Below, piece by piece: positions 3,608 to 37,872 of a stretch of 64,000 nucleotides of DNA; position 1 is the stretch's first letter; each line of letters begins with the position of its first letter. The notes beneath the pieces are model-generated. The model was given only the letters and a program-made list of their open reading frames with translations. It ran no database searches and was not told where the DNA came from. The translations under genes were made by a program, and so were the position numbers. Origin of the DNA: a virus; the IMG/VR virus record IMGVR_UViG_3300043419_000787, positions 1-64,000 of that record. One strand, written 5' to 3'.

Positions 3608-3690
3608 ATATGTAAATATAAACATAATTTTTCAAACGGTAAAACTTTTTTGTGATTATTTCAAAAAAGTTATTAACATTTTCACAACTA
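3608..3690 (-). promoter_or_regulatory. Tripartite repeated promoter-like element (type A), upstream of the sigma factor gene
   Basis: Plus-strand boxes TATGTAAATATAAACA, TTTTCAAACGGTAAAACTTTT and GTGATTATTTCAAAAAAGTTATTAACA. Near-identical copies at 10609, 14780, 15909, 17605; partial at 21294. Confidence 0.55.
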
Positions 3691-3691
3691 G

Positions 3692-4216
3692 TTAACTCTC
3701 AATATCATTAAAAAGATCCATTATAGAATCTAAAGACTTAGGCTTGTAGCTCCAGAAGTCACAGGAAACATTGACCATTCTCTTCTTGTGGTCTGTTTTG
3801 TATTTCTTATTAGGATAACCAAAGAAATGGTAATATCCTTTGCTCTTTCCAGGCCATTCATGGAGAGGCCAGTATGAAAGAGATATTTTGTCAGCCGATG
3901 AACTAAAAAGAGGTTCAATCAGGGCTGCATGATGTGGCATAACTTTACGTTTAGTCAAATCAACTATGGCATTATCATGTTCTCCTTGAACAAAAATAAT
4001 TGTACCATTTAGTTTTTTAATAACGTCTTCGGCTGTAGTAGGATCCCATGCAAAATTACCTAACACATAGACAATATCGTCAAGTTTAACAGTTGAATTC
4101 CATGAAGCAATTAGAGATTGATTCATGTCCTCAACATTCTCGAATGGTCGTGCAAAATCACGAATAGCGCTTGGTCGACCAAACTGCTGGTTAGATGTAA
4201 AATATATTGTTGGCAT
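3692..4216 (-). CDS. Hypothetical protein, possible small phosphoesterase-like
   Basis: 174 aa. Weak GNF..D / VQGEHD motifs reminiscent of a calcineurin-like fold, but not convincing. Confidence 0.3.
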   Translation of the reverse strand: MPTIYFTSNQQFGRPSAIRDFARPFENVEDMNQSLIASWNSTVKLDDIVYVLGNFAWDPTTAEDVIKKLNGTIIFVQGEHDNAIVDLTKRKVMPHHAALIEPLFSSSADKISLSYWPLHEWPGKSKGYYHFFGYPNKKYKTDHKKRMVNVSCDFWSYKPKSLDSIMDLFNDIES

Positions 4217-4755
4217 TAAACTACTATAAATTTGATATTGAAATTATCCCATAAATTTTCTAAGAATTTCTCTTCAGAAATTCCAGTTTTTGCATTCTTA
4301 ATTCTGTTGTCGTCTGAGCAATCAATAAACATGTAAATAATAAAATCGTAAACGGTAGAATAAACTAAACTTTGACCAAATCCAGCACGTAAATCAGATC
4401 CTCGGTCTCCACGTTTAATTTCAATTGCAATTTTAACTCCGCTGTACTCAATACTCATATCTGGTCGATTTGAAGTACCCATGAAAATCATGTTATGTAC
4501 TGTAGTATTGACGTTACCTTCCCATTTTAACAATGATTTAGCTTTTTCTCTAGCTAAAGATTTGTCCATGTCTTTTTTCTCGGCAATAAAATTACCTAGA
4601 CTTTCGACTAGATGTGGGTAGATAAATTGCTTAATTTTATCTTCTGACTGTTTTTTATAATTGATAGTTCCGAAGACATCTTTGGTAGAAATGCCTTCGG
4701 AAATAATATCAACTAATTCGATTCTATTCTTTGATTTACTTGCTAGTTTCATCAA
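4216..4755 (-). CDS. Hypothetical protein, possible PD-(D/E)XK nuclease-like core
   Basis: 179 aa. RPDMSIEYSGVKIAIEIKRG has a PD...ExK spacing. Confidence 0.3.
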   Translation of the reverse strand: MMKLASKSKNRIELVDIISEGISTKDVFGTINYKKQSEDKIKQFIYPHLVESLGNFIAEKKDMDKSLAREKAKSLLKWEGNVNTTVHNMIFMGTSNRPDMSIEYSGVKIAIEIKRGDRGSDLRAGFGQSLVYSTVYDFIIYMFIDCSDDNRIKNAKTGISEEKFLENLWDNFNIKFIVV

Positions 4756-5314
4756 TTAATTCTTGAGCTGGTTCTTCAACAACAGGCTCTTCAGCAGGAA
4801 GTTCAAAATCAGCAATTCTTTTATCTAGTTCTCCTAGTTCAGCATGTAGAGCTTGAACTTTTTTGTTCTCTTCAGCCATTTCTTTCATAGCTTCTGAAAT
4901 TTGAGCACCGATGTTTGTTAACAATTTAATGTAGTTACGAGCTGACTCGATTCCAGTACTTTGTACGCTTAACAAAGATTGGTACAATGTATTTAGGTCA
5001 ATTGGCTTTAAATAGATTGTTGAAGCCTCTCCAGCTTCTAGTTCACGTTTTTCTTGTTTAGCAGCATTTTCTTCAAGAGTAAGTCTTTGCTTTTCAACTT
5101 TTAAGTTGTCATTAAGATTTACCAATAGTGCTGCATTTTTAGAACTCCAAGCAACGTCTTTATTTAAGTGGTTAATAACTTTAGTGATGTTTTGAGTTGA
5201 TTCAAAATCAATTGCAAATTCTTTCTGAGCCAATTCAGTTTGAAAATCTGCAACATTCACTTCTAATTCATTACGAAGAGTTTTCAATTCTTCTAGAGTT
5301 GTTTCTTTTGCCAT
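4736..5314 (-). CDS. Hypothetical coiled-coil protein
   Basis: 192 aa, charged and helical composition, no recognisable catalytic motif. Confidence 0.4.
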   Translation of the reverse strand: MAKETTLEELKTLRNELEVNVADFQTELAQKEFAIDFESTQNITKVINHLNKDVAWSSKNAALLVNLNDNLKVEKQRLTLEENAAKQEKRELEAGEASTIYLKPIDLNTLYQSLLSVQSTGIESARNYIKLLTNIGAQISEAMKEMAEENKKVQALHAELGELDKRIADFELPAEEPVVEEPAQELIDETSK

Positions 5315-5338
5315 GTGTAATTATTTATGTTTTATATA

Positions 5339-5818
5339 TTAAAATTTTGGGTTGTTTATCCGGCAGTCGTAGTTTGTAAAACCTTCGTACTGTTTCTCAT
5401 CTGCTGCAATTCTGCGTTCCCATGGATCGTGAGTATCTCCACGTCCTGCTAAACGCTCAGCTCTTACTTCAAATGGTATATCTAAGTAAATAACAAAACA
5501 TCTTTGACGATATTCGTCTGGTAGCATCGCTAGACCTTCGACATTAAGAATCATTGAATCGCAACGTTCAAATTCGTCTTTATGAATTCCATAATAGAAT
5601 CCAACGAACTCTTGCCATTCAACCAACTGATCACTGTCGATCATCTTCTTGAACTCTTCAACGGTGGTGAAATGATAATCAACACCATCTACTTCTCCAA
5701 CCCTAGGTGGTCGGGTAGTGTGGGAGACACCATATTTAAATCCTCTATCAATTAATATTTTTCGGAAATGATCTTTGCCTGAAGCGGCCTTACCTACTAA
5801 TACGATTTTACTATCCAT
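5339..5818 (-). CDS. Guanylate-kinase-like nucleoside monophosphate kinase
   Basis: P-loop GKAASGKD and HTTRPPRVGEVDGVDYHF, matching the Gmk TTRxPRxGExDGxDYxF signature. Confidence 0.7.
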   Translation of the reverse strand: MDSKIVLVGKAASGKDHFRKILIDRGFKYGVSHTTRPPRVGEVDGVDYHFTTVEEFKKMIDSDQLVEWQEFVGFYYGIHKDEFERCDSMILNVEGLAMLPDEYRQRCFVIYLDIPFEVRAERLAGRGDTHDPWERRIAADEKQYEGFTNYDCRINNPKF

Positions 5819-5847
5819 ACTTATTATATTGGGTTATTTGTTTTTGT

Positions 5848-6645: not shown

Positions 6646-6646
6646 A

Positions 6647-6871
6647 TTATTTTTTTGGGTTTATTAGTCCTACAATAACATAAACTAATGCAATCGGCCA
6701 AATTAGACAGATAATAGTTCTCTCGTAATTTGTCAAGCGATACTCTTCAGCACTAATTGAACTAATCATTAAATCAGCAATTAGATTAACTAATATACCA
6801 ATTCCAATATACATTACTAAATCATTAAAAATATTCATGCGGAGTTTCCTTTGGTTTCCACCAGTCTTCAA
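6647..6871 (-). CDS. Small membrane protein (2 TM)
   Basis: 74 aa with two hydrophobic helices. Confidence 0.4.
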   Translation of the reverse strand: MKTGGNQRKLRMNIFNDLVMYIGIGILVNLIADLMISSISAEEYRLTNYERTIICLIWPIALVYVIVGLINPKK

Positions 6872-8031: not shown

Positions 8032-8037
8032 GATATT

Positions 8038-8298
8038 TTATTTTTCGTTAATAATTACTTGACCTTCCATTACTCCGTAACCTGATTTCTCAGTGAAATA
8101 ATAAGTAGTTGCTTTAGTGGTATCTTTTTTGGTTAAAATCCAAAGACTTGCATCTTTACCTTTCCAAGTAACATTTACTAAACGACTACCAGGTTCTAAG
8201 TTAATAACTTCTGTTCCTCCAAATGATCTTGCCATTTGATTGTCGGTACATGATGCTAATGAGATAACTGCAATTGCAATAATAAATAATTTTTTCAT
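8038..8298 (-). CDS. Lipoprotein (signal peptide + lipobox)
   Basis: MKKLFIIAIAVISLASC lipobox. 86 aa. Confidence 0.55.
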   Translation of the reverse strand: MKKLFIIAIAVISLASCTDNQMARSFGGTEVINLEPGSRLVNVTWKGKDASLWILTKKDTTKATTYYFTEKSGYGVMEGQVIINEK

Positions 8299-8318
8299 TT
8301 TGTTAATGTTTTAATGTT

Positions 8319-8375
8319 ATATGTAAATATAAACAAAAAACTCGACATAAAAAAATGCCGAGTGATTTATTTTAA
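8319..8375 (-). promoter_or_regulatory. Repeated promoter-like element, type B variant
   Basis: TATGTAAATATAAACAA ... CTCGACATAAAAAAA ... GAGTGATTTATTTT. Same proximal and distal boxes as type A; middle box replaced. Sibling at 37817. Confidence 0.45.
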
Positions 8376-8377
8376 AT

Positions 8378-8935
8378 TTATTTTACATCTTTCAATTCAG
8401 TTCTTAATCGACCAATTGCAGCATCAAGAGTGTTATAAACCGGAATGTTGTATCGGCTACAAACAATATCTACGTTACCTTTACGCCAAAATCCATCAGG
8501 ACAACAAACAATCATTTTACCAGAATTAGCGTATAAGCCAAGTTCTAATAAGCTAATTGGACTCTTAGTTTCTGGTGAAAAGTACATAAAGATAATATCA
8601 CATACATCTAGCATATTCATTTCCCAATTTACCTGTTTGCTAAATTGTGGATTTGATTCTTTCTGCTCCCAACTAGAATCCCAATCATCTCGACGTGGAT
8701 TTAAGAATGTCAATTTATTTCGATCATTAAACAATTCAGGTATTACTGATTGCCAATCTTCAGCAGCTCCCATTTCAATAGAACCTGCTAAGAAAACTGA
8801 TGTGTCTGTACTAAGATCCCATGTTGGAATACAAGGTGCTTTTACTACTTCCATTACTTTTCTAATTTTTTTGAGATAAACATAAGACCATTCCATGTTA
8901 ATTTTAAAATCATCATAAGCCAAAAGAATGGCCAT
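8378..8935 (-). CDS. Nucleoside 2-deoxyribosyltransferase-like (NDT/DNPH1/Rcl fold) protein
   Basis: VFLAGSIEMG and ISLLELGLYANSGKMIVCC resemble the NDT/Rcl active-site and AxALGKPV regions. Confidence 0.5.
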   Translation of the reverse strand: MAILLAYDDFKINMEWSYVYLKKIRKVMEVVKAPCIPTWDLSTDTSVFLAGSIEMGAAEDWQSVIPELFNDRNKLTFLNPRRDDWDSSWEQKESNPQFSKQVNWEMNMLDVCDIIFMYFSPETKSPISLLELGLYANSGKMIVCCPDGFWRKGNVDIVCSRYNIPVYNTLDAAIGRLRTELKDVK

Positions 8936-9099: not shown

Positions 9100-9101
9100 G
9101 G

Positions 9102-10583
9102 TTATTTTAATTTTGCGCGAATTGCAGTTAAAGTAGTTTGATTTCCAAAAGTACCATTTTCATAGATACATCTCATATCAGTTGCTTTCTCTCCAGACCA
9201 AGTTTGTTGATCGACTAATTTATAACCATCTTCTCCAGTTGTAATTCTTAGCAAACCTTTTGCAGATTTTTTAACACCGTCATCAGTGATTGGATCTTTA
9301 AAGATTTCACGACCTTCTCCATTAACTTCTACATAGGTTGCTTTCATTGCAAAACCAAATGTATCTCTAGTGTTATATTGGTAAGTGAAACTTCCAACTC
9401 CTAATACGATATTTGTACTTGCAAATCCTTTAGCTTCTAATCTTGTAAAGATTTGTTCAGCTCGGTCTAATGTAATTGAATCTCCATAGATTGCTCCAAT
9501 ATGTGGATCTAATACTTTGTAACCTTGTTCGTTGATTGTTCCACCGAATACATCCCAAAGTAATTCAATAACTCCTTTCCATTCGGGTTTATCCTCGGAA
9601 GGAAAATCGTTCCTGTTTAGTGATTCATTGATACCTTGTCTCGAATTGATACCACAAATAATATCCACCGGGTCACCAGAATCAGGACGAATAACTACTT
9701 TACCATCTCTTGCAAGAATCTCTTCTTTAAGAGTTACTAAGTGTTCAGTACAAACTTTCCATAAATCCCAAGTGTCTGACACGATAGAAAGAATTCCTGT
9801 TGGATATGTTTCCATTAAGTTTCGGAATGTTCCAATCTCATCTTCTTTAGATCCAGCACACATAACTGAATGTTCAGTTGCATTCACCGATCCAGCTACA
9901 AATTCAGTTTCATTGTAGAATTTACGGGCTCCAAAGATTGCTGGTAAACTATCAGAACCTGAGAAACTTGTTAAGTGACCAAGACCTGAAGAGATAGTTG
10001 CATCAATTGAATCTAGACCTCTCATTGAGAAATCATGTGCTTGCCAATCTACGAACCAGCTTTTTTCAGCATCAGTTTTCTCTTGCCATGTTGTAAATAA
10101 TTTACGGTAAGCATGTGCAATAGTTGCAGAAGTCATTGGTTTCCATAACAAGTTAGAAATAACTGTCTCTAGATAATTTGTTATCCAATAGAAATCAGGA
10201 TGTGTATTGTAAATTGTTAGGACTGGAACCTTCATTGGAACCAGAGCTCCTTCTTCAATTGCTTTAACATTAATAGGCAAGTAACCTAAATCATGAAGAG
10301 CTTCAAAATGACTAACATCATAATCAGTGTTTAAGTACATTGATAATTCTCGTTTCATTTCTCCACAAACTTCGTCTTTTGGACGGCTAAAGAAATCTTT
10401 TTGGAATGCCTCGTGGATTTGTTTAATTACCATTTGTTGTCCAAATGATACTAATTCGTCACAACCTTTCGGTGCGTACTTGTTACTTCTAGGAGTAAAG
10501 TTTGAATAAACCAACGTAGTTCCTTTTGGATATTGTTGGTGATGTCCTGTTTTGTAACCGTCTGTTAAAAATAATGGATTCAT
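9102..10583 (-). CDS. nadV: Nicotinamide phosphoribosyltransferase (NAMPT/NadV family; alternatively Namat-like)
   Basis: ~494 aa from MNPLFLTDGYKTGHHQQYP (NAMPT N-terminal signature). ORF-track N-extension MFIFTY... is translation of the repeated promoter element, so start trimmed to Met at 10583. Confidence 0.85.
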   Translation of the reverse strand: MNPLFLTDGYKTGHHQQYPKGTTLVYSNFTPRSNKYAPKGCDELVSFGQQMVIKQIHEAFQKDFFSRPKDEVCGEMKRELSMYLNTDYDVSHFEALHDLGYLPINVKAIEEGALVPMKVPVLTIYNTHPDFYWITNYLETVISNLLWKPMTSATIAHAYRKLFTTWQEKTDAEKSWFVDWQAHDFSMRGLDSIDATISSGLGHLTSFSGSDSLPAIFGARKFYNETEFVAGSVNATEHSVMCAGSKEDEIGTFRNLMETYPTGILSIVSDTWDLWKVCTEHLVTLKEEILARDGKVVIRPDSGDPVDIICGINSRQGINESLNRNDFPSEDKPEWKGVIELLWDVFGGTINEQGYKVLDPHIGAIYGDSITLDRAEQIFTRLEAKGFASTNIVLGVGSFTYQYNTRDTFGFAMKATYVEVNGEGREIFKDPITDDGVKKSAKGLLRITTGEDGYKLVDQQTWSGEKATDMRCIYENGTFGNQTTLTAIRAKLK

Positions 10584-10608
10584 ATATTGTATCTTTGTTA
10601 ATTTGTTA

Positions 10609-10684
10609 TATGTAAATATAAACAATGTTTTTCAATCGGGAAAACATTTAGTGAGTTATTTTCTAAAAAGTTATTAACATTTTT
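10609..10684 (-). promoter_or_regulatory. Tripartite repeated promoter-like element (type A), upstream of NAMPT gene
   Basis: ATATGTAAATATAAACA / TTTTCAATCGGGAAAACATTT / AGTGAGTTATTTTCTAAAAAGTTATTAACA. Confidence 0.55.
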
Positions 10685-11898
10685 TGTAAGGTGTCAATTG
10701 CTCCTTCTGAACTGTCTGGATTCATTAAACATGCATTTTGAACATTACACATCGAAGTCTCCATATCGAATGGGATTGCAATGTCTTTATCATAGAACAT
10801 TGTTAAGTATTCATTAATCTCAGCATTCGTTGCAAATCCAATTTCTTTAATAACATCAATTCTACCTGGTCTTAATAGGGCAGGATCTAATTGTTCAACA
10901 TGATTTGTTGTAAATATAACCAATACGTTGTTTAGACTAATTGCGCCGTCTAATGCATTTAATAAACCGCTAAAGGTTATTTTTGATTTTTTATTAATTA
11001 CATCTCGTCCATTAAAGAAAGCATCAATATCTTCAAATAATAAAATTGAGCCTGGATTAATTTCAGAAAACATTGAAACCATATCATTGTCTCCATCAAT
11101 ATTATTTAGGTTAACGTTATAAACGTCCATTTCATATTCTATTGCAATTGCTCTAGACAAAGTAGTTTTTCCAGTGCCTGGAGGACCAAAATAACAATGT
11201 CCTCTTTTATGTGGAATTCCTCTTCTGATATATTCTTCTCTAGAATCTCTCCAATTACTAATATCATTTAAGATTTCGTCTTTTAATTTCTTATTGATAA
11301 CGACTTGGCTTAATGGTTTACCAGAGATATTTTGCATGTATGAAAACCAATCACCTTTTGAAATATAAAAGCGTGGATCTTTTTTAACATTCCCGTAATT
11401 CTCATTAATTTCTTTAATCAGTCTTCTAATTGAGCGAGATGCAAAGATTCCCTTAAACACATAATGCTTTAAATAAACTGATTTTAAATTATTTGCATTT
11501 TCAAGTTTATCACGACCAAAAGAAATACGAATCCAACTTGCATATTTTCTTAAATAGAAAAAATCTTCAATTGGTATTTCTTTAATATCTTTTGCCTTTT
11601 TACCTCGAGAGTTTGGTAAATCATCATCGTCATCAGCGGATCTAGTAGTGTATTCAACGTTTCTAGCCTTGCTTTTATGATTATCACGAATCCAATATGT
11701 GATATAATCGTATAACTCGTCAGTTTGATAAATCGTAACTTTATAAGATATTAAAGTCATTATCCTTTCCCATATCGAGCTAGGAACTCCTTTTAAAGAA
11801 GCAAAAATGGCTGCTGCAATTGATGCAAATGCAGCAGCACCAAAAAATTGATTGGTTTGAATTTGTTGTTCTACCCAAACATAAATGTCATGTATCAT
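10663..11898 (-). CDS. BCS1-like AAA+ ATPase with N-terminal membrane anchor
   Basis: Walker A GPPGTGKTTL, Walker B ILLFEDID, N-terminal hydrophobic segment. 411 aa. Confidence 0.8.
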   Translation of the reverse strand: MIHDIYVWVEQQIQTNQFFGAAAFASIAAAIFASLKGVPSSIWERIMTLISYKVTIYQTDELYDYITYWIRDNHKSKARNVEYTTRSADDDDDLPNSRGKKAKDIKEIPIEDFFYLRKYASWIRISFGRDKLENANNLKSVYLKHYVFKGIFASRSIRRLIKEINENYGNVKKDPRFYISKGDWFSYMQNISGKPLSQVVINKKLKDEILNDISNWRDSREEYIRRGIPHKRGHCYFGPPGTGKTTLSRAIAIEYEMDVYNVNLNNIDGDNDMVSMFSEINPGSILLFEDIDAFFNGRDVINKKSKITFSGLLNALDGAISLNNVLVIFTTNHVEQLDPALLRPGRIDVIKEIGFATNAEINEYLTMFYDKDIAIPFDMETSMCNVQNACLMNPDSSEGAIDTLQKMLITF

Positions 11899-13680: not shown

Positions 13681-13893
13681 TTATATTAGTTTTAAATATT
13701 TTAGTTCTTCGACTGCCGCATCAAATGCGTCTTGCCATGTTCGGTATAAAAACCACTCTTGTACATTAATTAATTCATAATTCCCAAAATGCTCATATTT
13801 GTATATGTCAAATGCATATTTAGGAGTACTCGTTCGGTCTAGAGATATTTCTACGACATATCCTAGAGTTGCTAATGAATCAATGGTGTACAT
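13681..13893 (-). CDS. Hypothetical small protein
   Basis: 70 aa ORF. Confidence 0.3.
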   Translation of the reverse strand: MYTIDSLATLGYVVEISLDRTSTPKYAFDIYKYEHFGNYELINVQEWFLYRTWQDAFDAAVEELKYLKLI

Positions 13894-14759
13894 TAATATA
13901 CGTTAAAAGTCTTGGTCTTAGTTTTTACTTCGTACTCGTCATCTGCAACTTCTCTAACACTGTTAGTACAGAAGATACCATTAAAATATTGAGTCAATGT
14001 TTCAAAACCAGCACTGAAAATACCGTGAGTTACAATCAAATAGATTTCGGCGTTTGGACGTTGTTCTTTAATAACTTTAGCCAATTCAACGAATGTTCTA
14101 CCACCATCACAAATATCGTCAACAATAACATATTTAAGGTCTTGATTTTCTGGTAAATTTGGAACTTCAGTTCTAAGAATGTTGCCAGATTTTAGGTCTC
14201 TGACCTTGTTTGCTGTAACAATATTTTCAATGTTGAATTCTTTAGCAACATCGAAGATTTTCTTGTAAGCTCCAGCATCTGGACTTACTAAGCAAATTCG
14301 GTCTTGTGCGTTGTCTTTATTATCAATTTCTTTCAATGCAAATTTAACTAGAGCAAAGTTTGGTGCTTTTTCATATCGATCAATACAAGCTTCTAGAACG
14401 TCGCTATGTGGATCTAATGTAATTACAACATCAAATTTCTGAGAATTGATAATTGGACAAATAACTTCTTTTAGATAATTGACACTACCAAATTCAAATC
14501 GACGATCTGAACGAGAACCTAAGAAGTAGGGTACATGTAAACCAATTGCTCCAGCTCCAACATTTCTTAATGCTTGATTTGCACAAATAATTAATTCAAG
14601 GTCTTTAAAAGAATTGAATCGAGAATCAATAAGAACCTGTTGTAAGTCTTCAGGAGATGAAGGTGGTAAGATTGAAATTGATTGTTGTCCATCAGGAAAT
14701 CTGTGGATTTGATATTTAATATCAGATTTTTCTAGGTCTACTAAATTTAAATGCTTCAT
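13893..14759 (-). CDS. prs: Ribose-phosphate pyrophosphokinase family (Prs; alternatively ADPR-PP synthetase Adps-like)
   Basis: PRPP-synthetase signatures DPHSDVLEACIDRY and the PRPP-binding loop VIVDDICDGGRTF. Confidence 0.85.
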   Translation of the reverse strand: MKHLNLVDLEKSDIKYQIHRFPDGQQSISILPPSSPEDLQQVLIDSRFNSFKDLELIICANQALRNVGAGAIGLHVPYFLGSRSDRRFEFGSVNYLKEVICPIINSQKFDVVITLDPHSDVLEACIDRYEKAPNFALVKFALKEIDNKDNAQDRICLVSPDAGAYKKIFDVAKEFNIENIVTANKVRDLKSGNILRTEVPNLPENQDLKYVIVDDICDGGRTFVELAKVIKEQRPNAEIYLIVTHGIFSAGFETLTQYFNGIFCTNSVREVADDEYEVKTKTKTFNVY

Positions 14760-14779
14760 GTATCTAATTGTTTAATGTT

Positions 14780-14850
14780 ATATGTAAATATAAACAAAAG
14801 TTTTCAAACGGAGAAACTTTTAGTGAATTAATTTGAAAATTTATTAACAA
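14780..14850 (-). promoter_or_regulatory. Tripartite repeated promoter-like element (type A), upstream of prs-like gene
   Basis: ATATGTAAATATAAACA / TTTTCAAACGGAGAAACTTTT / AGTGAATTAATTTGAAAATTTATTAACA. Confidence 0.55.
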
Positions 14851-15220
14851 TTAACCTTCCTGTGATTTGAGTTCCAGTAGGAGTATCTTGAGTCATCCAC
14901 TCGATAAGATCGCTTTTCATAATCTCTTCACAGATTTCTCGTTTAATTCCCATCTTAATAGTATCTAATGCAAAGTTAGTACCTCGTGAAACATCGGCAC
15001 CATACAACATTTCCATATTAGACATGCTTTTAGTGCTTCTAATTTGTATAGGATTCCCTACTTTAGTATCATATTTAAATACCTTTCCGGTTTCAAATTG
15101 ATTTTTAGGCTTTCTATTAAAAAAAGATGAGAAAGGAAATAATATACTTAATATTTCTCTCCATTCAAAATCTTTTAACTTTGCGTCCATTTGGTCGCAC
15201 CATTCGTTAAATCTTTTCAT
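14828..15220 (-). CDS. Hypothetical protein
   Basis: 130 aa ORF. Confidence 0.4.
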   Translation of the reverse strand: MKRFNEWCDQMDAKLKDFEWREILSILFPFSSFFNRKPKNQFETGKVFKYDTKVGNPIQIRSTKSMSNMEMLYGADVSRGTNFALDTIKMGIKREICEEIMKSDLIEWMTQDTPTGTQITGRLIVNKFSN

Positions 15221-15654
15221 TAGCTTCTGTATCTTAATTCTTTTTGACGATAAACACTTAGGACTGAACCTTGACCATGTGTGATTGCAAATTGATAACC
15301 ATAATAGTCATAAACAGCAGACGGAAAGTTCTCAGTTAAACCATCGATTGGTTCGATTTCAACTCCTTTGAGAGATGCAATTTCCCACATCAAATTCATG
15401 ATATGCAAAGCACGATCAGTATAAGTGTCATAGTGACGCGCATCATACTTCTCTTGCTTCTCTAAAATATCTAACATTAAATAATCAAAAGTAGAATCGT
15501 CGCAGACTCCATACCTTTGCAATAGCTTTTCTGCTCGTCCAATTAGGATTTGTTCACGTTCCATTAATTTACGGAAATAGTCTACCATTGTCTTTTCTCC
15601 CTCAGGAGTTTCTAGAAATTCTAGTAATTTTTTTGCTCCGTCCATATTATGCAT
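15220..15654 (-). CDS. Hypothetical protein
   Basis: 144 aa ORF. Confidence 0.4.
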   Translation of the reverse strand: MHNMDGAKKLLEFLETPEGEKTMVDYFRKLMEREQILIGRAEKLLQRYGVCDDSTFDYLMLDILEKQEKYDARHYDTYTDRALHIMNLMWEIASLKGVEIEPIDGLTENFPSAVYDYYGYQFAITHGQGSVLSVYRQKELRYRS

Positions 15655-15892
15655 GTTTAGCCATTAATTCATTTTCAGTACAACGGAATCTCTTTCCAGT
15701 AGAAAGGTCAACATAAGTTTGAGGTTTTTCAAGCTCTTCACTTAATTTACTAACACTCTTGATTTTATCTAAACCAGCTTGGTGTGCTGATTCCTCAGTT
15801 GCGTTGTTACTGTACTTCATATGAAACTCATAAGAAGTTTTGTAGAGTACCTTGTTAATTCCCGATAATGTGTTTAAAAATTCTACGTTCAT
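15647..15892 (-). CDS. Hypothetical protein
   Basis: 81 aa ORF immediately downstream of a type A element. Confidence 0.4.
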   Translation of the reverse strand: MNVEFLNTLSGINKVLYKTSYEFHMKYSNNATEESAHQAGLDKIKSVSKLSEELEKPQTYVDLSTGKRFRCTENELMAKHA

Positions 15893-15908
15893 TTTGTTAT
15901 TGTTTTAA

Positions 15909-15985
15909 TTAATGATATGTAAATATAAACATAATTTCTCAAACGGAAAAACTTTTATGCAATTATTTTCAAAAAGTTATTAACA
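15909..15985 (-). promoter_or_regulatory. Tripartite repeated promoter-like element (type A)
   Basis: ATATGTAAATATAAACA / TTTCTCAAACGGAAAAACTTTT / ATGCAATTATTTTCAAAAAGTTATTAACA. Confidence 0.55.
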
Positions 15986-16069
15986 AAATAGTATAGAGAT
16001 TGTAATAATCAATGCAAACCACATGATTACTCCAACTGTTACGGCGATGTCTTGTTTTTTATTGTTCAT
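15980..16069 (-). CDS. Possible 29-aa hydrophobic micro-protein (MNNKKQDIAVTVGVIMWFALIITISILFC)
   Basis: ATG-initiated ORF with one TM-like segment. Its stop overlaps the AAAAAGTTATTAACA box. Confidence 0.2.
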   Translation of the reverse strand: MNNKKQDIAVTVGVIMWFALIITISILFC

Positions 16070-17300: not shown

Positions 17301-17582
17301 TTAAATAGCTTCAGTTAAACTAAGAGGAGCAGAGATAAGACTAATTTTACCAGCTTCTCTCAAATGTACTTTAGTACGGTTAATTTTAACAACTTCAAAT
17401 GTTTTACCAGCTGCTTGAGGATGGTTAACTTTAACGGTCATACCAACTTCAAGTGATCTCTTAACCATACGAGCATCTTGTCTACGACGTAATTTGATAA
17501 TATCAATTAGGTCTTGGTTAAGCTGAGAAAGTTCAGCAGTTGAAAGGTTGTTAATTTCTGAAAGGATTTTTGAATAGTTCAT
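17301..17582 (-). CDS. Hypothetical protein
   Basis: 93 aa ORF downstream of a type A element. Confidence 0.4.
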   Translation of the reverse strand: MNYSKILSEINNLSTAELSQLNQDLIDIIKLRRRQDARMVKRSLEVGMTVKVNHPQAAGKTFEVVKINRTKVHLREAGKISLISAPLSLTEAI

Positions 17583-17604
17583 GTTGTTATTGTTTTAATT
17601 AATG

Positions 17605-17686
17605 ATATGTAAATATAAACATAATTTTTCAAACGGTAAAACTTTTTCACAATTATTTTCACTTTTTTTCAAAAAGTTATTAACAT
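17605..17686 (-). promoter_or_regulatory. Tripartite repeated promoter-like element (type A)
   Basis: ATATGTAAATATAAACA / TTTTCAAACGGTAAAACTTTTT / CACAATTATTTTCACTTTTTTTCAAAAAGTTATTAACA. Confidence 0.55.
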
Positions 17687-17690
17687 TTCA

Positions 17691-17722
17691 CAAAAAAGGG
17701 TCCTGATTAATCAGGACCCTTT
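17691..17722 (-). terminator. Intrinsic terminator downstream of SPFH gene
   Basis: Perfect hairpin AAAGGGTCCTGA-TTAA-TCAGGACCCTTT followed on the minus strand by TTTTTTG. Confidence 0.7.
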
Positions 17723-21034: not shown

Positions 21035-21283
21035 TTAAATATAACAGAATTCAATCAACTTTGGTGCTATAGTGTTAAAGTATACATCGTCTTCACTTTC
21101 AGCAACCTTAATTAAATGGTCTATAATATCATGTACCTCTGTATCTTCGTTGACAGGAGTGACTCCCATTATCTCAGAAAGATGTATCAATGGATCGGTA
21201 TGTCCATTATAAAGTGCTAGGACTGCAAATTGTTCAATTGTCATTTTTAATCTTTGTCCTACTATTAATGATGTTGCTCCCAT
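21035..21283 (-). CDS. Hypothetical protein
   Basis: Start set at MGATSLIV; ORF-track extension MFIFTYQIRI is translation of the repeat element. Confidence 0.4.
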   Translation of the reverse strand: MGATSLIVGQRLKMTIEQFAVLALYNGHTDPLIHLSEIMGVTPVNEDTEVHDIIDHLIKVAESEDDVYFNTIAPKLIEFCYI

Positions 21284-21293
21284 AATTCTAATT

Positions 21294-21345
21294 TGATATG
21301 TAAATATAAACAATTATTTTCAAACGGTAAAACTTTTTGTGATAT
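21294..21345 (-). promoter_or_regulatory. Repeated promoter-like element, partial type A copy
   Basis: ATATGTAAATATAAACA / TTTTCAAACGGTAAAACTTTTT / GTGATATTTTTTTG; lacks the full distal box. Confidence 0.45.
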
Positions 21346-21401
21346 TTTTTTGAATGATTGAAAATAAATAACAAAACCCTTAAAAATATTTTACATTCAT
21401 C

Positions 21402-21533
21402 ATGGCAAAAGGTTCTAAAGGCGCTTCAAATTCAATGAAAGTTCAATTTGGAAAAAGAAAAAGCGGTAAAGCTTCTAAAGGTAAAAACAAACATGCCCGA
21501 AAAGTTAGTAAATATCGTGGTCAAGGTCGCTAA
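21402..21533 (+). CDS. Small (43 aa) highly basic Lys-rich protein (MAKGSKGASNSMKVQFGKRKSGKASKGKNKHARKVSKYRGQGR)
   Basis: ATG..TAA ORF on the plus strand, unlike its neighbours, immediately followed by a strong terminator. Confidence 0.4.
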   Translation: MAKGSKGASNSMKVQFGKRKSGKASKGKNKHARKVSKYRGQGR

Positions 21534-21536
21534 ATT

Positions 21537-21567
21537 AAAAAAGCTCTTCTATAGAAGAGCTTTTTTT
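21537..21567. terminator. Bidirectional intrinsic terminator
   Basis: AAAAAGCTCTTCT-ATAG-AGAAGAGCTTTTTTT flanked by A-run and T-run. Sits between convergent genes 21402..21533 (+) and 21589..22347 (-). Confidence 0.7.
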
Positions 21568-22347: not shown

Positions 22348-22443
22348 GTGATTTTCCTTTTGTTTTAAAACCCTTTTACTACCTTTATGATAGTTCCAAA
22401 GCCATTATTGACTCAGGGCCTCAAGTGTTTGGCACCACTTTTG

Positions 22444-22528
22444 CGGAAGATGTAGGATTCGAACCTACGGTACCTTGCAGTACAACAGTTTTCAAGACTG
22501 CCGCGATCGACCACTCTGCCAATCTTCC
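22444..22528 (-). tRNA. tRNA-Ser-like (anticodon UGA), type II with long variable arm
   Basis: Reverse complement gives GGAAGAU...AUCUUCC acceptor stem (7 bp), anticodon stem GCAGU/ACUGU, loop CUUGAAA, variable arm GUAC-UGCAA-GGUAC, T-arm GUAGG-UUCGAAU-CCUAC, discriminator G. No encoded CCA. D-stem imperfect. Confidence 0.75.
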
Positions 22529-22573: not shown

Positions 22574-25500
22574 TTAATCGTCCTTTACTGTAAGTACAAT
22601 GCTAGTTAACATTCTTTCTAATTGAGCAAGTGTAATTCCAGGTTTCGAATCTGCTGGATTTGGTTTTCCAGCCGGTGCAGCGGCTACAGGTCCTGTAGCT
22701 CCTTTAACTGCTGTAGTGTTAGGAACTGTTGATGTTGTTGGTGGCGGAGGTGGAGTAGCAACTGATTTCTTAAATTCTTCAATCATTGATGTTAATTGTT
22801 TGATTGAATCATTAAGTGCAGCACTCATTTGATTAATTGAACCAGCTCCTTTATAACCAGAAAGATATGCAAGTCCTTGGAACATATCACTTGTAAATTT
22901 CAAGTTAACTTTGTCAAACGCGTTTAAGGTATCTTTAAGTCTACCCATATCATCGACATACTTCTTGAAATTATCTACAAATTTAACCCATGGATCGATA
23001 TTTTCTGCAATCATTTTCATTTTGTCTGCAACATTTCCTAAGACAATAACAAATGATTCTTGTTGTTCTGCGTTTTCTCCAGCACTTGAAAGAGCACCAG
23101 TCATACCGCTAATAACTCCTTGAATTTTAGCATTTAATGCAACAGGATCAACATTAGTTTCCATAAATGTTTTAGCAGCATCCGCAATTTTCTTAATTGG
23201 ATCTGCAAAACTTGTTACAATTTCAACACCATCTTCGATTTTAGAAGAACCAAACCAACCCCAATCATTTTGAGCATCTGGATTATTTCCAATCTCTCCC
23301 ATAACTCCTGTTATTGCAACGACAAGAGATCTGATATTACTAGTAACTTTTGTTACAGCATCGGCACCCATTGATTCGTAACCAACGATTTTACCATCTT
23401 TATAGATTGGAATCTTAAGGTCAGCCATTGCTTGAACTCCTTTGGCAATTTCAGCAACTGCACCGCCCATACCTTGAACTGCTCCAATACCATCAGTAAC
23501 TGGATTACCGCCTCCTCCAAAAATCATATTAAGGAAGCTCTTCTGACCACCAGGATACTGAAGACCAATTTCGCCAAATACATCTGCTAAAGAACCAACA
23601 ATATTTCTAATATTACCCTTTAATCTATCAAATGCACCAGAATCTAGAGTATTATAACCAACAATTTTAGTTCCTTGATAAATTGGGAACTTAAGGTCAG
23701 CCATAGCTTGAACTCCACCAGCAATAGAAGTTAAAACATCTCCCATACCCATAACAGCGGCAATACCATCTGCTACTGGAGATTGTTTTCCACTTCCAAA
23801 AACACTAGAAAGGAAACCTGCTTTACCTCCAGGATATTTAAGTCCTAGTTCACCAAAGGTTGTACTTAGTGAACCAACAATTAAATTGATATTATCATTA
23901 ACCTTTTTAAAGGTGTCACTAGATAGTGTGTAGTAACCTGTGATTTTAGTTCCTGAGTATATTGGGAACTTTAAGTCAGCCATAGATTGAACTCCTTGAG
24001 CAATAGAAGATAAAGCATCTCCCATTCCTAAACAAGCATCAATACCATCAGCGACAGCAGATTGAGAACCACCTCCAAAAATACTACTTAATACGCTTTT
24101 TCTACCTCCAGGAAATTGTGTTCCAATTGCTCCAAAGGCTCCAGCTAAAACTGTAACTAATTTACCAATTTGATCTGGTAAAACATCATAATTAATTTTT
24201 AAATCTTGTACTTTTTTAATTCCATAAGCAACTGTTGCTAATGCAACTCCAACCATAACCATAGCCGGTGCAGTAGCATACATTGACATAATTGAAAGAG
24301 GATTAAGAGTAAATGAACGAGCAATTGATAACATCAACCACTCCATATTACTCATCATTCTTCCACCACCAAATCCCATAAATCCTTCAGTTTCATGTCC
24401 TGAATCTCCAAGCATTTTGGTCATATCAGTACTACTGAATAACTTAGCCATTGCAGCAGCTCCTAAAGAAACAAATACTAATGCAAGTCCAGCAACAATC
24501 ATTGCTGCGGCTCCAGCAAGTATAAAAGGTGCTGCGGCTCCAGCAAGTCCCATAACAAGACCAACACCAGTAACCAATGCTCCAATTTGACCGATTGTAA
24601 TCCAACCAGCTTCATCTGGAGTAATAGATGCTGCAAATATAGAAACTGCAACTCCTAATAATATAATTGGGATTGCAGCAAATATCATAACAAGAGAACC
24701 TAATAATATCTCTTTAGCAAATTTACCAGCTAACCAGAATACAACTGCAACTCCAACAACCATTCCAGCAATCATTAACATTGTCATTGCAGGATCGTCC
24801 ATCGCTTGATACATTGTATCTACTAATAAGAATGCAAGTCCTAATAAAACGATAGCTCCGGCAGCGAACATTAATCCAACACTGATTCGTTTCATTGATT
24901 TATCAACTCCCATTTTATCTAGTAAAAAGAAGAGTCCTCCAATTGCTAATAATGAAATTACAATATATGGTAATGCAGACATTCCAGCCGGGTAAATTAC
25001 CGTTGCTAAAACTAATGCAACTCCAAATAATAGAATTGCTTTTGCAACATCACCCATTGCAATTAATGCCTGTTGTGTTTTCGGATCTGATAGTGGTTTT
25101 GACGCCATTTGTAAAACTTTTGTTATAACAAATAGAGCTAGCCCAAATAATGGGGCTGCTATCATACCAACTATTAATAGAGGTGTTGCCAAGAATAAAT
25201 AACCGGCAAATTTAAGAATTGCTGGTCCAATTTTTGAAATAGCATCAATTGTAAGTACTAAGGCTTCTGCCTTTTCTTTAAATTGTTTACCACTTCCTTT
25301 CATAGATTCAATTGCTTCAACAATTGCAGCTAATCCTTTACCAATACCTTCAAGTCCTTTACCACCAACTATTTTTAGGGCAATTGCATTACCAATACCC
25401 ATTCCTCCGCCACCGCCAGAATTTCCACCGGATTGTTTACCAGAATTTGCAGTATTTTTAGCAATGGTTTTTAATAATCGAACCATCTCTTCAACCTTAC

Positions 25501-25612
25501 CAAATAGTATTCCACCCGGACTAACTGCTTCTGCAGTAATCTGGGTGGATGTACTAATATATGTAAGATTATCGACTGATAGTCGTTCAAATGGACTTTT
25601 AAAGATACTCAA
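22574..25612 (-). CDS. Putative tail tape-measure protein
   Basis: 1012 aa downstream of sheath/tube/chaperone genes. Gly-rich N-terminus, ~300 aa multi-TM Ala/Gly-rich segment, three tandem ~95-aa repeats (PGG...VADGI...MGMGD...ADLKFPIY.GTKI.GY), proline-rich C-terminus. Apparent TTG start. Confidence 0.5.
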   Translation of the reverse strand: MSIFKSPFERLSVDNLTYISTSTQITAEAVSPGGILFGKVEEMVRLLKTIAKNTANSGKQSGGNSGGGGGMGIGNAIALKIVGGKGLEGIGKGLAAIVEAIESMKGSGKQFKEKAEALVLTIDAISKIGPAILKFAGYLFLATPLLIVGMIAAPLFGLALFVITKVLQMASKPLSDPKTQQALIAMGDVAKAILLFGVALVLATVIYPAGMSALPYIVISLLAIGGLFFLLDKMGVDKSMKRISVGLMFAAGAIVLLGLAFLLVDTMYQAMDDPAMTMLMIAGMVVGVAVVFWLAGKFAKEILLGSLVMIFAAIPIILLGVAVSIFAASITPDEAGWITIGQIGALVTGVGLVMGLAGAAAPFILAGAAAMIVAGLALVFVSLGAAAMAKLFSSTDMTKMLGDSGHETEGFMGFGGGRMMSNMEWLMLSIARSFTLNPLSIMSMYATAPAMVMVGVALATVAYGIKKVQDLKINYDVLPDQIGKLVTVLAGAFGAIGTQFPGGRKSVLSSIFGGGSQSAVADGIDACLGMGDALSSIAQGVQSMADLKFPIYSGTKITGYYTLSSDTFKKVNDNINLIVGSLSTTFGELGLKYPGGKAGFLSSVFGSGKQSPVADGIAAVMGMGDVLTSIAGGVQAMADLKFPIYQGTKIVGYNTLDSGAFDRLKGNIRNIVGSLADVFGEIGLQYPGGQKSFLNMIFGGGGNPVTDGIGAVQGMGGAVAEIAKGVQAMADLKIPIYKDGKIVGYESMGADAVTKVTSNIRSLVVAITGVMGEIGNNPDAQNDWGWFGSSKIEDGVEIVTSFADPIKKIADAAKTFMETNVDPVALNAKIQGVISGMTGALSSAGENAEQQESFVIVLGNVADKMKMIAENIDPWVKFVDNFKKYVDDMGRLKDTLNAFDKVNLKFTSDMFQGLAYLSGYKGAGSINQMSAALNDSIKQLTSMIEEFKKSVATPPPPPTTSTVPNTTAVKGATGPVAAAPAGKPNPADSKPGITLAQLERMLTSIVLTVKDD

Positions 25613-33158: not shown

Positions 33159-33195
33159 AATATGATATTATTTATAGAATATGTATCCCAATAAA

Positions 33196-35145: not shown

Positions 35146-35174
35146 TACAATGAGTTAATTTTGTTTATATATTC

Positions 35175-35855: not shown

Positions 35856-36283
35856 TAATAAACTTTTATATTTTCATCAAGTCTTTTAAGTTCTTCGAGT
35901 GTTTCTTTTTTGAAAAACTTTAAAGCTTCATTGTATTCTCTTTTACCAATCTCATTCTTTTTCATATAGAATTCGATTGCCTCTTGACTAGGTATGTATT
36001 CTTTTTTATCGACAGGTGCCGATTCAGATTTCTTAGTTTTTGTGTAGATCCATGGTGGAACCGCAGAAAAACGTTGAGCTACTAGAGCCCAACTGTCAAT
36101 AACTGCTAGTCCATTAATACCATTGATATTGAATGCTTGCGCATTTGCAGGAAACTTAATTGAGAAAAAACGATTAATCATAAAATGATGACGCTTCTTA
36201 TTAAAGTCCTTGATATTCTTATAGTCTTTTGGCTTTGTAAACATAATTTTAACAAAGTCAAATAATTTAGTTTCGTCTAGCAT
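35855..36283 (-). CDS. Hypothetical protein
   Basis: 142 aa ORF. Confidence 0.4.
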   Translation of the reverse strand: MLDETKLFDFVKIMFTKPKDYKNIKDFNKKRHHFMINRFFSIKFPANAQAFNINGINGLAVIDSWALVAQRFSAVPPWIYTKTKKSESAPVDKKEYIPSQEAIEFYMKKNEIGKREYNEALKFFKKETLEELKRLDENIKVY

Positions 36284-36299
36284 ATTTTTGTTTTAATTA

Positions 36300-36416
36300 A
36301 TCCATCCACTTACCGTGCTTACGCAAATGCCAAAATCTGTGTTGCAATACTGCAATAACAATACCAAACAAGGTATCTGCTTCATATACGCCTTCTTTTA
36401 CTATTAATTTCATATA
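36300..36416 (-). CDS. Possible 38-aa small protein (MKLIVKEGVYEADTLFGIVIAVLQHRFWHLRKHGKWMD)
   Basis: ATG ORF in an otherwise unassigned gap; small hydrophobic core. Confidence 0.2.
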
Positions 36417-36417
36417 G

Positions 36418-36570
36418 TTTTATTTTATCCAATCATTATAAGCATGTATATATGCTTGTTCTATTGAAAGACTTGGGTCCTGAGACATGTGGCTTTCGGC
36501 GAATACCTTTACCTCATATTCAAGACCCCATTCTTTTGCTTCTTGTAAGATTTCTTCTACGATTTCTGTC
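36418..36570 (-). CDS. Possible 50-aa small protein (MTEIVEEILQEAKEWGLEYEV...)
   Basis: ATG ORF; its start abuts the RNase H gene stop. Confidence 0.2.
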
Positions 36571-36571
36571 A

Positions 36572-37792
36572 TTAAAATAATTTAATAGTTGTAGATGAAT
36601 CTTTGTCTTTTGTTTCATTTTCGTCTAATCCGGCGAATGCATCAAAATCAACTGGTGTTTGATTGGCTTTTTTCAACCAACTAGATCCTTCAAGTATCTT
36701 TTCCATTTGAGAAAGAACCATAATTGCTGGTTCAGTTTCTTTATCTCGATCAATTACTTTAGTAATTTCTTGTTGAATTGGTTCTGGTATTGTATTGTAG
36801 TGAAGTAACATCAAATCTAGATTTTGATTAAATCTATTAAGGATATTTACTTGAGTGTCATGACCAATAATGCGGTAAATCAGGTTAACAATCTTATCAA
36901 CTTGTGTTTTGTTAAACATGTGGTCAATAACAAATTCGCCTTCTTCTTTAATGTATTGTTCTAAGATAGCTTCTGCCTGTTTGTCAGTAATTGAGAATGT
37001 ACGATCTTTACCATTTTTCATAGGTTTTTGGTACGTAACAACTGATTTAATATTATCAGATTTGTCGCCCATTAGAATCTTTTGGAAAACGAAACGATCA
37101 CAATTGATTTCTTCGACTTCAATAGAATTCTTTTTCATCCAATCAATCATTTCATTTTTGATACGATCACTTTGATGACTTGGACTATCCATGTTGAATA
37201 ATAAATCATCATTTGAGATTTCTAATTCAGTGGTGTTACTGAAAATATCATTGAATCCTTCGAATGCAATTAACTTACGTTTGGTGTTATAGTACCATAG
37301 AGAATAACCATCGGTTGCTTTTGAGTAATCAACTAATTGAATCATATCACGGTCACCAGTCCAAATAATGCAATTCTTACCTTGTGTATTTAAATAAGTT
37401 GACCATGCAAATAGAATATCATCTGCTTCTGCACCTTTAACTTGATTTACAATAACACCTTTTTTAGCAAGGATTAATTTAAATTCGTCATATACTTCAT
37501 AAACAGCTGACCAATCAACTGAACTATCTTGAGTACGTGTACCTTTGTATTGTGCTTCAGGAAATAGATCCTTACGCCAGGATTTTGAATCAACAGCAAA
37601 AACGATTTGATTAACAAAAGGAGTCATTTTTCGAACTTCTGATGCAAAGTCGATTGCAAGTTTTCGAATGAATTGTCCTTTGCTCGCATCATCACCAAGC
37701 AGAGCACCGCTTTTAGGTCTTGGTAGAACGAACAATCTACTATGAATGAAATAGTTACCATCAATAAGTAGTGTATGATTTCCGAGCTTCAT
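36572..37792 (-). CDS. rnh: RNase H / 5'-3' flap exonuclease (T4 rnh, FEN-1 family)
   Basis: Motifs AEADDILFAW, IIWTGDRDMIQL, KILMGDKSDNIKSV parallel T4 RNase H acidic clusters and the H3TH region. C-terminal extension (406 aa). Confidence 0.8.
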   Translation of the reverse strand: MKLGNHTLLIDGNYFIHSRLFVLPRPKSGALLGDDASKGQFIRKLAIDFASEVRKMTPFVNQIVFAVDSKSWRKDLFPEAQYKGTRTQDSSVDWSAVYEVYDEFKLILAKKGVIVNQVKGAEADDILFAWSTYLNTQGKNCIIWTGDRDMIQLVDYSKATDGYSLWYYNTKRKLIAFEGFNDIFSNTTELEISNDDLLFNMDSPSHQSDRIKNEMIDWMKKNSIEVEEINCDRFVFQKILMGDKSDNIKSVVTYQKPMKNGKDRTFSITDKQAEAILEQYIKEEGEFVIDHMFNKTQVDKIVNLIYRIIGHDTQVNILNRFNQNLDLMLLHYNTIPEPIQQEITKVIDRDKETEPAIMVLSQMEKILEGSSWLKKANQTPVDFDAFAGLDENETKDKDSSTTIKLF

Positions 37793-37816
37793 ATATTATT
37801 TCTTTAATTTGTTTCT

Positions 37817-37872
37817 TATGTAAATATAAACAATTTTCTTGACATAAAAAACTGTTTAGTGAATTATTTTTG
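37817..37872 (-). promoter_or_regulatory. Repeated promoter-like element, type B variant
   Basis: TATGTAAATATAAACAA / TTTTCTTGACATAAAAAAC / TGTTTAGTGAATTATTTTTG. In coding orientation gives TTTACA-N17-AAATAAT roughly 10 nt before the rnh ATG. Confidence 0.45.

Follow-up and report, generated by a model that had tools for sequence, protein, structure and literature searches.

A dispersed intergenic repeat in a large T4-like phage as a candidate pre-late promoter cassette of the Bacteroidota type

The DNA analysed here is a stretch of 64,000 nucleotides, positions 1 to 64,000 of the IMG/VR virus record IMGVR_UViG_3300043419_000787, and is referred to as the window. It contains an intergenic element of ~80 bp which recurs in eight copies upstream of accessory and early-type genes. 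Each copy is probably a pre-late (early or middle) promoter cassette, and its most likely reader is the RNA polymerase of a Bacteroidota host equipped with the primary sigma factor. This reading is built on the sequence of the element, its position relative to start codons and tRNA genes, the covariation of its hairpins, the helical phasing of its upstream boxes, the presence of a different motif in front of structural genes and its distribution among other phages.

Copies of the element and their position

The 16-mer TGTTTATATTTACATA occurs in the window in eight exact copies, all on the minus strand, which are named here by the position of the 16-mer (c3609 to c37817, Table 1). When up to three mismatches were allowed, 15 sites were found, against 4.2 ± 2.1 in shuffled sequences, and none of 100 shuffles reached 15. 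The aligned copies share ~65–100 nt. The middle box AAAAGTTTTACCGTTTGAAAA is present in six copies at up to three mismatches, where 0.01 would be expected, and the distal box TGTTAATAACTTTTT/TGTTAATAAC in five of the eight, being exact in c3609, c10609, c15916 and c17606 and carrying two mismatches in c14781. It is missing from c8320, c21297 and c37817, and in c8320 and c37817 a duplicated AAAATAA(A/T)T box stands in its place. An earlier reading of the same DNA, made from the sequence only, had described eight near-identical elements and had stated that the copies at 8319 and 37817 swap the middle box and keep the distal one; the number and the swap were confirmed, while the retention of the distal box was not.

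The distinctness of the element was also visible in a profile search. An nhmmer profile trained solely on copies from other phages and then run on the window recovered exactly the eight copies (38–45 bits, E ≤ 1e-10), and the next match scored below 5 bits. Because the profile finds these eight and nothing else above 5 bits, the element forms a discrete class and not a continuum, and no weak or degenerate further copies were detected in the window by this search. Among the sites with up to three mismatches, those at 10907 and 28970 lie in coding sequence and are due to chance.

Coding sequence makes up 91.6% of the window, and all eight copies are situated in the non-coding 8.4%, in the same orientation as the downstream gene and 13–25 nt before its minus-strand ATG. 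The elements are thus all intergenic, as the sequence-only reading had held. Its further remark that the ORF (open reading frame) caller had produced spurious MFIFTY extensions was also correct, since the TTG-start ORFs 9102..10625 and 21035..21313 translate the 16-mer as (M)FIFTY. The genes behind the copies encode the sigma factor, NAMPT, a prs-like enzyme, RNase H and small ORFans. A transposon or miniature inverted-repeat transposable element was considered as an origin of the repeat and rejected, as the repeat lacks terminal inverted repeats and target duplications and keeps a strict orientation and distance to the ATG.

Two neighbouring ORFs on the minus strand overlap the cassettes. The BCS1-like AAA ATPase ORF 10663-11898 reads through the distal box of c10609, and the 130-aa ORF 14828-15220 reads through the distal box of the next cassette; both end inside the cassette, so that their C-terminal residues are encoded by the regulatory repeat. 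Another intergenic region, 57962-58120 on the minus strand, contains a near-copy of the 16-mer (TGTCTATATTTATATA, 58097-58112) as a part of the perfect palindrome GTGTCTATA-TTT-TATAGACAC, after which come a second, G+C-rich hairpin and a T-run, GGGCAGAGA...TCTCTGCCC TTTTTT. This near-copy was not scored as an element by the profile.

Resemblance to the promoters of Bacteroidota

Promoters read by the primary sigma factor in Bacteroidota consist of a -33 TTTG and a -7 TAnnTTTG element, the latter refined in F. johnsoniae to TAHHTTTG, in which T-12, A-11, T-8, T-7, T-6 and G-5 are nearly invariant and which is located 4-5 nt before the transcript start; these promoters have a weak -33 box and A/T-rich flanking turns, and their leaders mostly exceed 10 nt (PMC6847099). 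Five of the six near-invariant positions (T-12, A-11, T-8, T-7 and T-6) are matched by TATATTTA, which occupies positions 4-11 of the 16-mer. If TATATTTA acts as the -7 element, transcription would begin one or two bases past the 16-mer, and the leaders in the window would be 12–25 nt long, A-rich and devoid of a Shine-Dalgarno sequence, as is usual in Bacteroidota. An invariant TTTT, situated 17-20 nt upstream of the 16-mer and 20 nt upstream of TATATTTA, would then fall at about -36 to -33, where the -33 element is expected.

The leaders were characterized, like the hairpins and the ATG distances, in 100 unique copies from the window and from its relatives among the IMG/VR matches listed. 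In these copies, which come from many phages, the ATG lies at a median of 21 nt past the 16-mer. None of 89 leaders has a Shine-Dalgarno-like tetramer, 57% of their bases are A, and A occupies position -3 in 63 of the 89, features which match the rules of F. johnsoniae (PMC6847099) and those described for translation initiation in Bacteroidota. Moreover, in related phages the same element stands 44 nt upstream of tRNA-Glu inside tRNA arrays, among them arrays of over 20 genes. Because it precedes tRNA-Glu genes, the action of the element is not on translation, which supports a function in transcription. The arrays concerned, in the relatives L026, L038, L063, L091, L109 and L014 (L numbers denote IMG/VR relatives), comprise 8-23 tRNA genes, with the cassette between tRNA-Thr and tRNA-Glu. 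A single tRNA gene, tRNA-Ser(UGA) at 22443-22528, is present in the window.

The sequence-only reading had also proposed a promoter, and this part of the proposal is sustained by indirect evidence. Its assignment of the boxes, TTTACA as a -35 element of the sigma-70 type and an A/T-rich hexamer 17 nt downstream as the -10 element, is very improbable. TTTACA does fit TTGACA at five of six positions, and the sequence downstream of it is A/T-rich. However, the transcript start implied by these boxes would fall ~43-45 nt past the first base of the 16-mer, whereas the ATGs are found at offsets 29-41, so that in all eight copies the start would coincide with or follow the start codon and the transcripts would lack it. 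The putative -10 region is poorly conserved, and sigma-70-type sites are not enriched in the region (71 versus 87.9 ± 11 in shuffles), such sigma-70-like readings as there are being weak (TTTACC-N17-TATATT, with 9 of 12 positions). Finally, the polymerase of Bacteroidota uses -33/-7 elements.

Terminator hairpins and phased upstream boxes

In 24 of the 100 unique copies the TTTT lies in the loop of an 8-bp stem when the stem is counted in a fixed register, and in more of them when off-register stems are included. The covariation of this stem (0.269) clearly exceeds that in shuffles (0.157 ± 0.011), none of 500 of which reached it, and that of the best slid control (0.166), and 101 double-change cells were counted where 49 were expected. 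A T-run follows the hairpin in all 24 fixed-register cases. The stem is recognized as an intrinsic terminator because this covarying structure is always followed by a T-run, and because the hairpin terminates transcription, the transcript of the downstream gene must start past it, in the 37-41 nt made up of the 16-mer and the leader. Where an upstream operon must end, the -33 region would thus be placed in the loop of the terminator hairpin and the U-tract would lead into the 16-mer, forming a compact terminator-promoter unit.

In the window, c8320 is the only copy with a hairpin, which is stable (-11.9 kcal/mol, z = -4.9) and followed by a T-run. The hairpin of c37817 is degenerate and six of the eight copies have none; seven of the eight are without stable structure (dG 0 to -3.7, z about 0). 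A gene similar to nucleoside 2-deoxyribosyltransferase (8378-8935) closes the NAMPT unit at the c8320 terminator.

A conserved stretch of ~80 nt, with a hairpin in some copies, could also be expected of a regulatory element in the 5' untranslated region, or of a small RNA, transcribed from a promoter further upstream. Such a role at the RNA level is barely conceivable here, given the lack of stable structure in seven of the eight window copies, the T-runs after the hairpins, which would terminate a transcript coming from upstream, and the presence of the element in front of tRNA genes as well. Rfam at gathering thresholds returned only tRNAs for the window and the related loci.

The boxes upstream of the TTTT are arranged with a regular spacing. 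GTTAATAAC is a 4+1+4 palindrome (the 9-bp GTTAnTAAC) and is present in 34 of 103 copies, where the background rate is 0.005 per 120 nt. Counted from the 16-mer, it begins at -43, -53/-54 or -64, positions separated by one helical turn, while TTTAACA is found at -45 and -34 and AAATAA at -37, -47 and -25. In c17606 an 11-nt insertion has shifted the distal box by approximately one helical turn, with the phase kept. Phasing of this kind is what would be expected of sites contacted by the polymerase (UP-like) or bound by an activator or operator protein. From their phasing, the AAAATAAT-type boxes at about -53 and the GTTAnTAAC palindrome, centred near -65 or one helical turn to either side, may lie on the same face of the DNA and act as UP-like or activator/operator sites, and an additional operator or activator function, as suggested by the sequence-only reading, is plausible. 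No protein binding them was identified.

A separate motif in front of the structural genes

The sequence-only reading had pointed out that no copy precedes a structural gene. This was confirmed, and the structural genes were found to carry another motif, ATATATA(A/G), which has 15 intergenic (Table 1) and 3 coding sites on the minus strand and is mostly placed 25-47 nt before the ATGs of structural genes. By analogy with TATAAATA of T4, it can be considered a candidate late promoter. The ORF 47640..48038 (minus strand, GTG start, 132 aa), which adjoins the head-closure and DNA-end-protector genes, matches the T4 gp55-type late sigma family (phrog_234, E 5e-12). The combination of a TATA-like box and a gp55-like sigma that marks the T4-type late system is thus found for the ATATATA[AG] class and not for the eight copies. 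Since the structural genes have a late motif of their own and a gp55-like sigma is present, the eight copies would belong to the pre-late programme, and the early-type character of the downstream genes (sigma, NAMPT, prs-like, RNase H, ORFans) agrees with this assignment.

Table 1. Cassette copies, a separate terminator and the candidate late promoter motif in the window.
Feature	Coordinates	Strand	Components	Context
c3609	3584..3682	-	16-mer 3609-3624; middle/-33 box 3629-3649; AAATAATCAC box; distal palindrome 3664-3678; 25-nt leader	precedes ECF-type sigma gene 2963..3583
c8320	8299..8380	-	16-mer 8320-8335; hairpin 8340-8363 (CTCGGCAT-TTTTTT-ATGTCGAG + T-run) in place of middle box; AAAATAAAT box duplicated	precedes 86-aa ORF 8038..8298
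c10609	10584..10683	-	16-mer 10609-10624; middle 10629-10649; distal 10665-10679	precedes NAMPT 9102..10583
c14781	14760..14853	-	16-mer 14781-14796; middle 14801-14821; degenerate distal 14835-14849	precedes prs-like gene 13893..14759
c15916	15893..15989	-	16-mer 15916-15931; middle 15936-15956; distal 15971-15985	precedes 81-aa ORF 15647..15892
c17606	17583..17689	-	16-mer 17606-17621; middle 17626-17646; distal 17671-17685	precedes 93-aa ORF 17301..17582
Separate strong terminator hairpin	17695..17722	-	GGGTCCTGAT-TAAT-ATCAGGACCC + T6; -21.6 kcal/mol	directly upstream of c17606
c21297	21284..21353	-	16-mer 21297-21312; middle 21317-21337; distal box absent; 13-nt leader only	precedes 82-aa ORF 21035..21283
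c37817	37793..37873	-	16-mer 37817-37832; TTTTTTATGTCAAG variant middle box (degenerate hairpin); duplicated AAAATAATTCA box	precedes RNase H / 5'-3' exonuclease gene 36572..37792
Intergenic ATATATA(A/G)	61075, 49861, 48958, 48944, 46495, 44465, 42404, 40683, 35172, 30646, 27744, 27110, 25642, 5339, 2617	-		

The phage, its probable host and the element in other phages

The window is A+T-rich (33% G+C), with nearly all of it coded for by the minus strand, and comes from a large T4-like myovirus. Its genes encode the large terminase (TerL), a sheath protein, a neck-like protein, RNase H, NAMPT, a prs-like enzyme and an AAA ATPase, along with DNA glycosylases, guanylate kinase, a nucleotidyltransferase and other accessory functions. 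A megablast search with 20 kb of the window revealed no close nucleotide relative among GenBank phages, and the phage was placed solely by its TerL protein and by a short-query blastn of the element. TerL is closest to that of uncultured huge phages, Tenacibaculum phage PTm1, phage PAU, Flavobacterium phage MaF61 and Lak phages; phages of Tenacibaculum, Flavobacterium and Prevotella are included among its closest relatives. The sigma factor encoded at 2963..3583 is of the ECF type, with the Bacteroidetes family TIGR02985 as its best match, and no Shine-Dalgarno sequence was found in the leaders of the window genes. The TerL relatives, the TIGR02985 match and the leaders without Shine-Dalgarno sequences together indicate a Bacteroidota host, probably of the Flavobacteriales type.

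An exact-match scan of IMG/VR with the 16-mer returned at least 118 loci, 85 of which have flanks with the same architecture. The shared order is a distal box (TGTTAATAAC or two TTTAACA boxes 11 bp apart), the AAAATAAT(TCAC/GTGA) box, the segment with the invariant TTTT, the 16-mer, an A-rich leader and the ATG. Many of the contigs have several copies, and some are 65-98% identical to the window in nucleotide sequence over conserved genes. In the relatives the 16-mer differs at positions 0-3 and 15 (TGAT, GGTT, TAGT and others), with TTATATTTACAT being essentially invariant.

Short-query blastn against GenBank phages showed that the cultured Chryseobacterium phages MA9V-1 and MA9V-2 share this architecture, so that the search of other phage genomes for the boxes, suggested with the sequence-only reading, extends the element beyond the IMG/VR relatives. 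The complete genome of MA9V-2 (218,539 bp) has seven exact and about nine one-mismatch copies of TATATTTACAT, about 16 in total, all on the gene strand and upstream of ATGs, and their flanks are typical (TTTTCAnATGTCR-N11-TAWATTTACAT). Their occurrence in a Chryseobacterium phage also speaks for a host of the Flavobacteriales type. The blastn matches to the Flavobacterium phage 'immuto' were rejected, as they cover the A-rich leader only and the core is absent. The literature search yielded no paper with the motif string, and the genome papers of MA9V-1 and MA9V-2 do not mention promoters.

Host polymerase or a phage-encoded specificity factor

Several observations weigh against a promoter read by the unmodified host polymerase. 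Practically all copies have A where the host -7 box has G-5, and an invariant CAT comes next; G at -5 was seen in two variants only, one in an IMG/VR relative and one in an MA9V-2 copy. The invariant TTTT lacks the G of TTTG. The element is consequently not the canonical host consensus, and the segment TTTTWYYRTKTSA, at about -36 to -24, is more conserved than has been reported for host -33 elements, an excess which could point to a specificity factor encoded by the phage. The pattern TTTTW-N15-16-mer, scanned across 185,579 bacterial and archaeal genomes with their prophages, gave seven matches, none of which is element-like. Furthermore, the assignment of the host is itself indirect.

These observations are what a promoter of the middle class would show if it depended on a phage protein that reprograms the host core polymerase. 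Candidates for such a protein are the ECF-type sigma encoded at 2963..3583, or an activator or appropriator acting at the -33/-26 box or at GTTAnTAAC, like MotA/AsiA of T4. The phased upstream palindromes are in keeping with this possibility, and so is the location of the sigma gene directly behind a copy, both in the window and in distant relatives. Nevertheless, as the sigma gene itself lies behind the element, it must first be switched on by something else. MA9V-2 shares the element, yet comparison of the window sigma with one of the two sigma-like genes of MA9V-2, an annotated sigma factor, gave E 6e-4 over 78 aa, which does not amount to clear homology; for the same reason, a shared phage sigma could not be invoked for the shared element. 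There are hardly any alternative host-type early promoters in the window, as the canonical TAHHTTTG occurs only three times in the intergenic minus strand and never at an element, and no MotA- or AsiA-like protein was identified in the part of the window ORFs that was screened. Dependence on a phage factor is therefore regarded as unlikely, although it is a serious rival.

The unmodified host holoenzyme is favoured because a phage sigma gene lies behind a copy here and in distant relatives, because the compared MA9V-2 sigma is without clear homology to that of the window, and because no other candidate early class is visible. A promoter cassette read by the host polymerase with its primary sigma factor thus remains the reading that most probably accounts for the element.

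One of the three intergenic TAHHTTTG matches, TACTTTTG, lies in the region 2910-2962 (minus strand) directly after the sigma gene, where it follows the hairpin CCAGCCG-GAAAATAA-CGGCTGG. Judging from these two features, the region may serve to terminate transcription, to start it as a host-type promoter for ORF 2667..2909, or to do both.

Signs of recombination between copies

Promoter-early stem-loop (PeSL) cassettes of T4-type phages (Arbiol et al., 2010, PMC2839356; Comeau et al., 2014, PMC4122927) are units of a stem-loop terminator and an early promoter which are located in hyperplastic regions and have been implicated in modular shuffling (PMC4122927). The sequence-only reading had compared the element with them. 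The comparison holds for the architecture, namely a terminator hairpin joined to a promoter in a hyperplastic region, and only weakly for the function. Seven of the eight copies are found in 3.6-21.3 kb, a region in which about half of the junctions are synteny-broken in comparison with the relatives, and none among the structural genes.

That the main evolutionary role of the cassette is to shuffle ORF cassettes in the hyperplastic region, as a recombination module of the PeSL type, would fit both this location and the architecture, which match those of T4-type PeSLs (PMC4122927), as well as a number of rearrangements that involve elements. In L119, a relative with ~90% identity to the window, a 428-nt indel consists of one ORF and one element, and a 355-nt ORF insertion with TGTTAATAA on both flanks lies beside c17606. 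Orthologous elements of the c8320 type precede different genes in L099 and L041, and several relatives have single small ORFs enclosed by two elements at a distance of 330-370 nt. The proximal half of c17606 in the window corresponds to that of c15916 in L119 and vice versa, and this swap, with its five linked differences, indicates an exchange of sequence between copies.

On the other hand, synteny breaks, determined from gene adjacency against all related loci, are not enriched at elements: they affect 18 of 35 junctions with an element and 100 of 210 without. Three indels between the window and L118/L119 lie away from elements, promoter function alone explains the strict position and orientation relative to the ATGs, and occasional recombination is expected of any dispersed repeat. 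A primary role in shuffling is consequently judged quite improbable. The copies seem to recombine from time to time, and their conservation would be explained by promoter function.

Neighbouring genes

NAMPT (9102-10583) and the prs-like phosphoribosyltransferase (13893-14759), both on the minus strand, each stand directly behind their own copy of the cassette, and the pair suggests an NAD salvage module. Few genes of the window are on the plus strand. One of them, 21402-21530, is divergent from c21297 and encodes a highly basic protein of 42 aa (MAKGSKGASNSMKVQFGKRKSGKASKGKNKHARKVSKYRGQGR); AATATTTTACATTC is found just 3 nt before its ATG, so the gene may be nearly leaderless, and a strong palindromic terminator follows it at ~21535-21565. 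The ORF 22574-25612 (1012 aa, no Pfam match) has internal repeats of ~270 nt at ~70% identity (23329-24149), which show as offset self-similar matches against the relatives L088 and L081.

Significance and comparison with known systems

Summarizing, TTTT-N20-TATATTTACAT together with the upstream boxes can serve as a candidate consensus for pre-late promoters in a large clade of T4-like and jumbo phages of Flavobacteriales, most of which are uncultured. In annotation, the cassette marks the starts of operons and corrects spurious N-terminal extensions, and in combination with the ATATATA(A/G) late motif it makes temporal classes predictable in metagenomic phages. It may also offer compact strong promoter or terminator-promoter parts for Bacteroidota, in which genetic tools are scarce. 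As the same cassette is carried by MA9V-2, which together with Chryseobacterium indologenes forms a cultured pair, the reader of the promoter, the role of A at -5 and binding at the palindrome are directly testable. A new kind of biology would be involved only if a phage factor were required. In that case, which is doubtful, the cassette would define a phage-specific transcription programme in which such a factor redirects the host polymerase to sites with A-5, CAT, TTTTWYYRTKTSA and GTTAnTAAC; this would be the first middle system of the MotA/AsiA-like or sigma-switch kind for hosts with -33/-7 promoters, and the terminator-in-promoter design would couple the end of one unit to the firing of the next.

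Compared with the early, middle and late classes of T4, with their MotA box and the late TATAAATA used with gp55, the window likewise has two sharply distinct promoter classes in one genome, a pre-late class with extended upstream conservation and a late class with a short TATA-like box, and encodes a gp55-like sigma. The two systems differ in the promoter sequences and in the type of host polymerase, and also in MotA/AsiA, of which no homologue was identified here among the ORFs screened. With the -33/-7 promoters of Bacteroidota the element shares T-12, A-11, T-8, T-7 and T-6, the absence of G at -10/-9, the distance of 4-5 nt to the presumed start, the A/T-rich flanking turns, and the predicted leaders, which are A-rich, lack Shine-Dalgarno sequences and have A at -3. 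It departs from them in the A at -5 followed by CAT, in the TTTT without G, in the conservation over ~80 bp and in its absence from bacterial genomes.

As with PeSLs, the units are dispersed and near-identical and join a stem-loop terminator to a strong pre-late promoter preceded by A/T-rich sequence. In both cases they are concentrated among small accessory ORFs in a hyperplastic region of T4-like genomes, seldom occur in structural modules and are sometimes reduced to half-elements beside indels. The element is, however, not a PeSL in the strict sense of a sigma-70 promoter with an obligatory stem-loop. An enrichment of breakpoints at the elements was looked for here and not found. The promoter is not of the sigma-70 type and lacks a Shine-Dalgarno sequence, having instead a -7 box of the Bacteroidota type with A at -5. 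The stem-loop is optional, occurring in one of the eight window copies and in 24 of the 100 unique copies in the fixed register. Moreover, where it occurs it overlaps the promoter, with the T-run of the -33 region in the loop, instead of being placed just upstream as in PeSLs, and the phased GTTAnTAAC palindrome is added to the unit.

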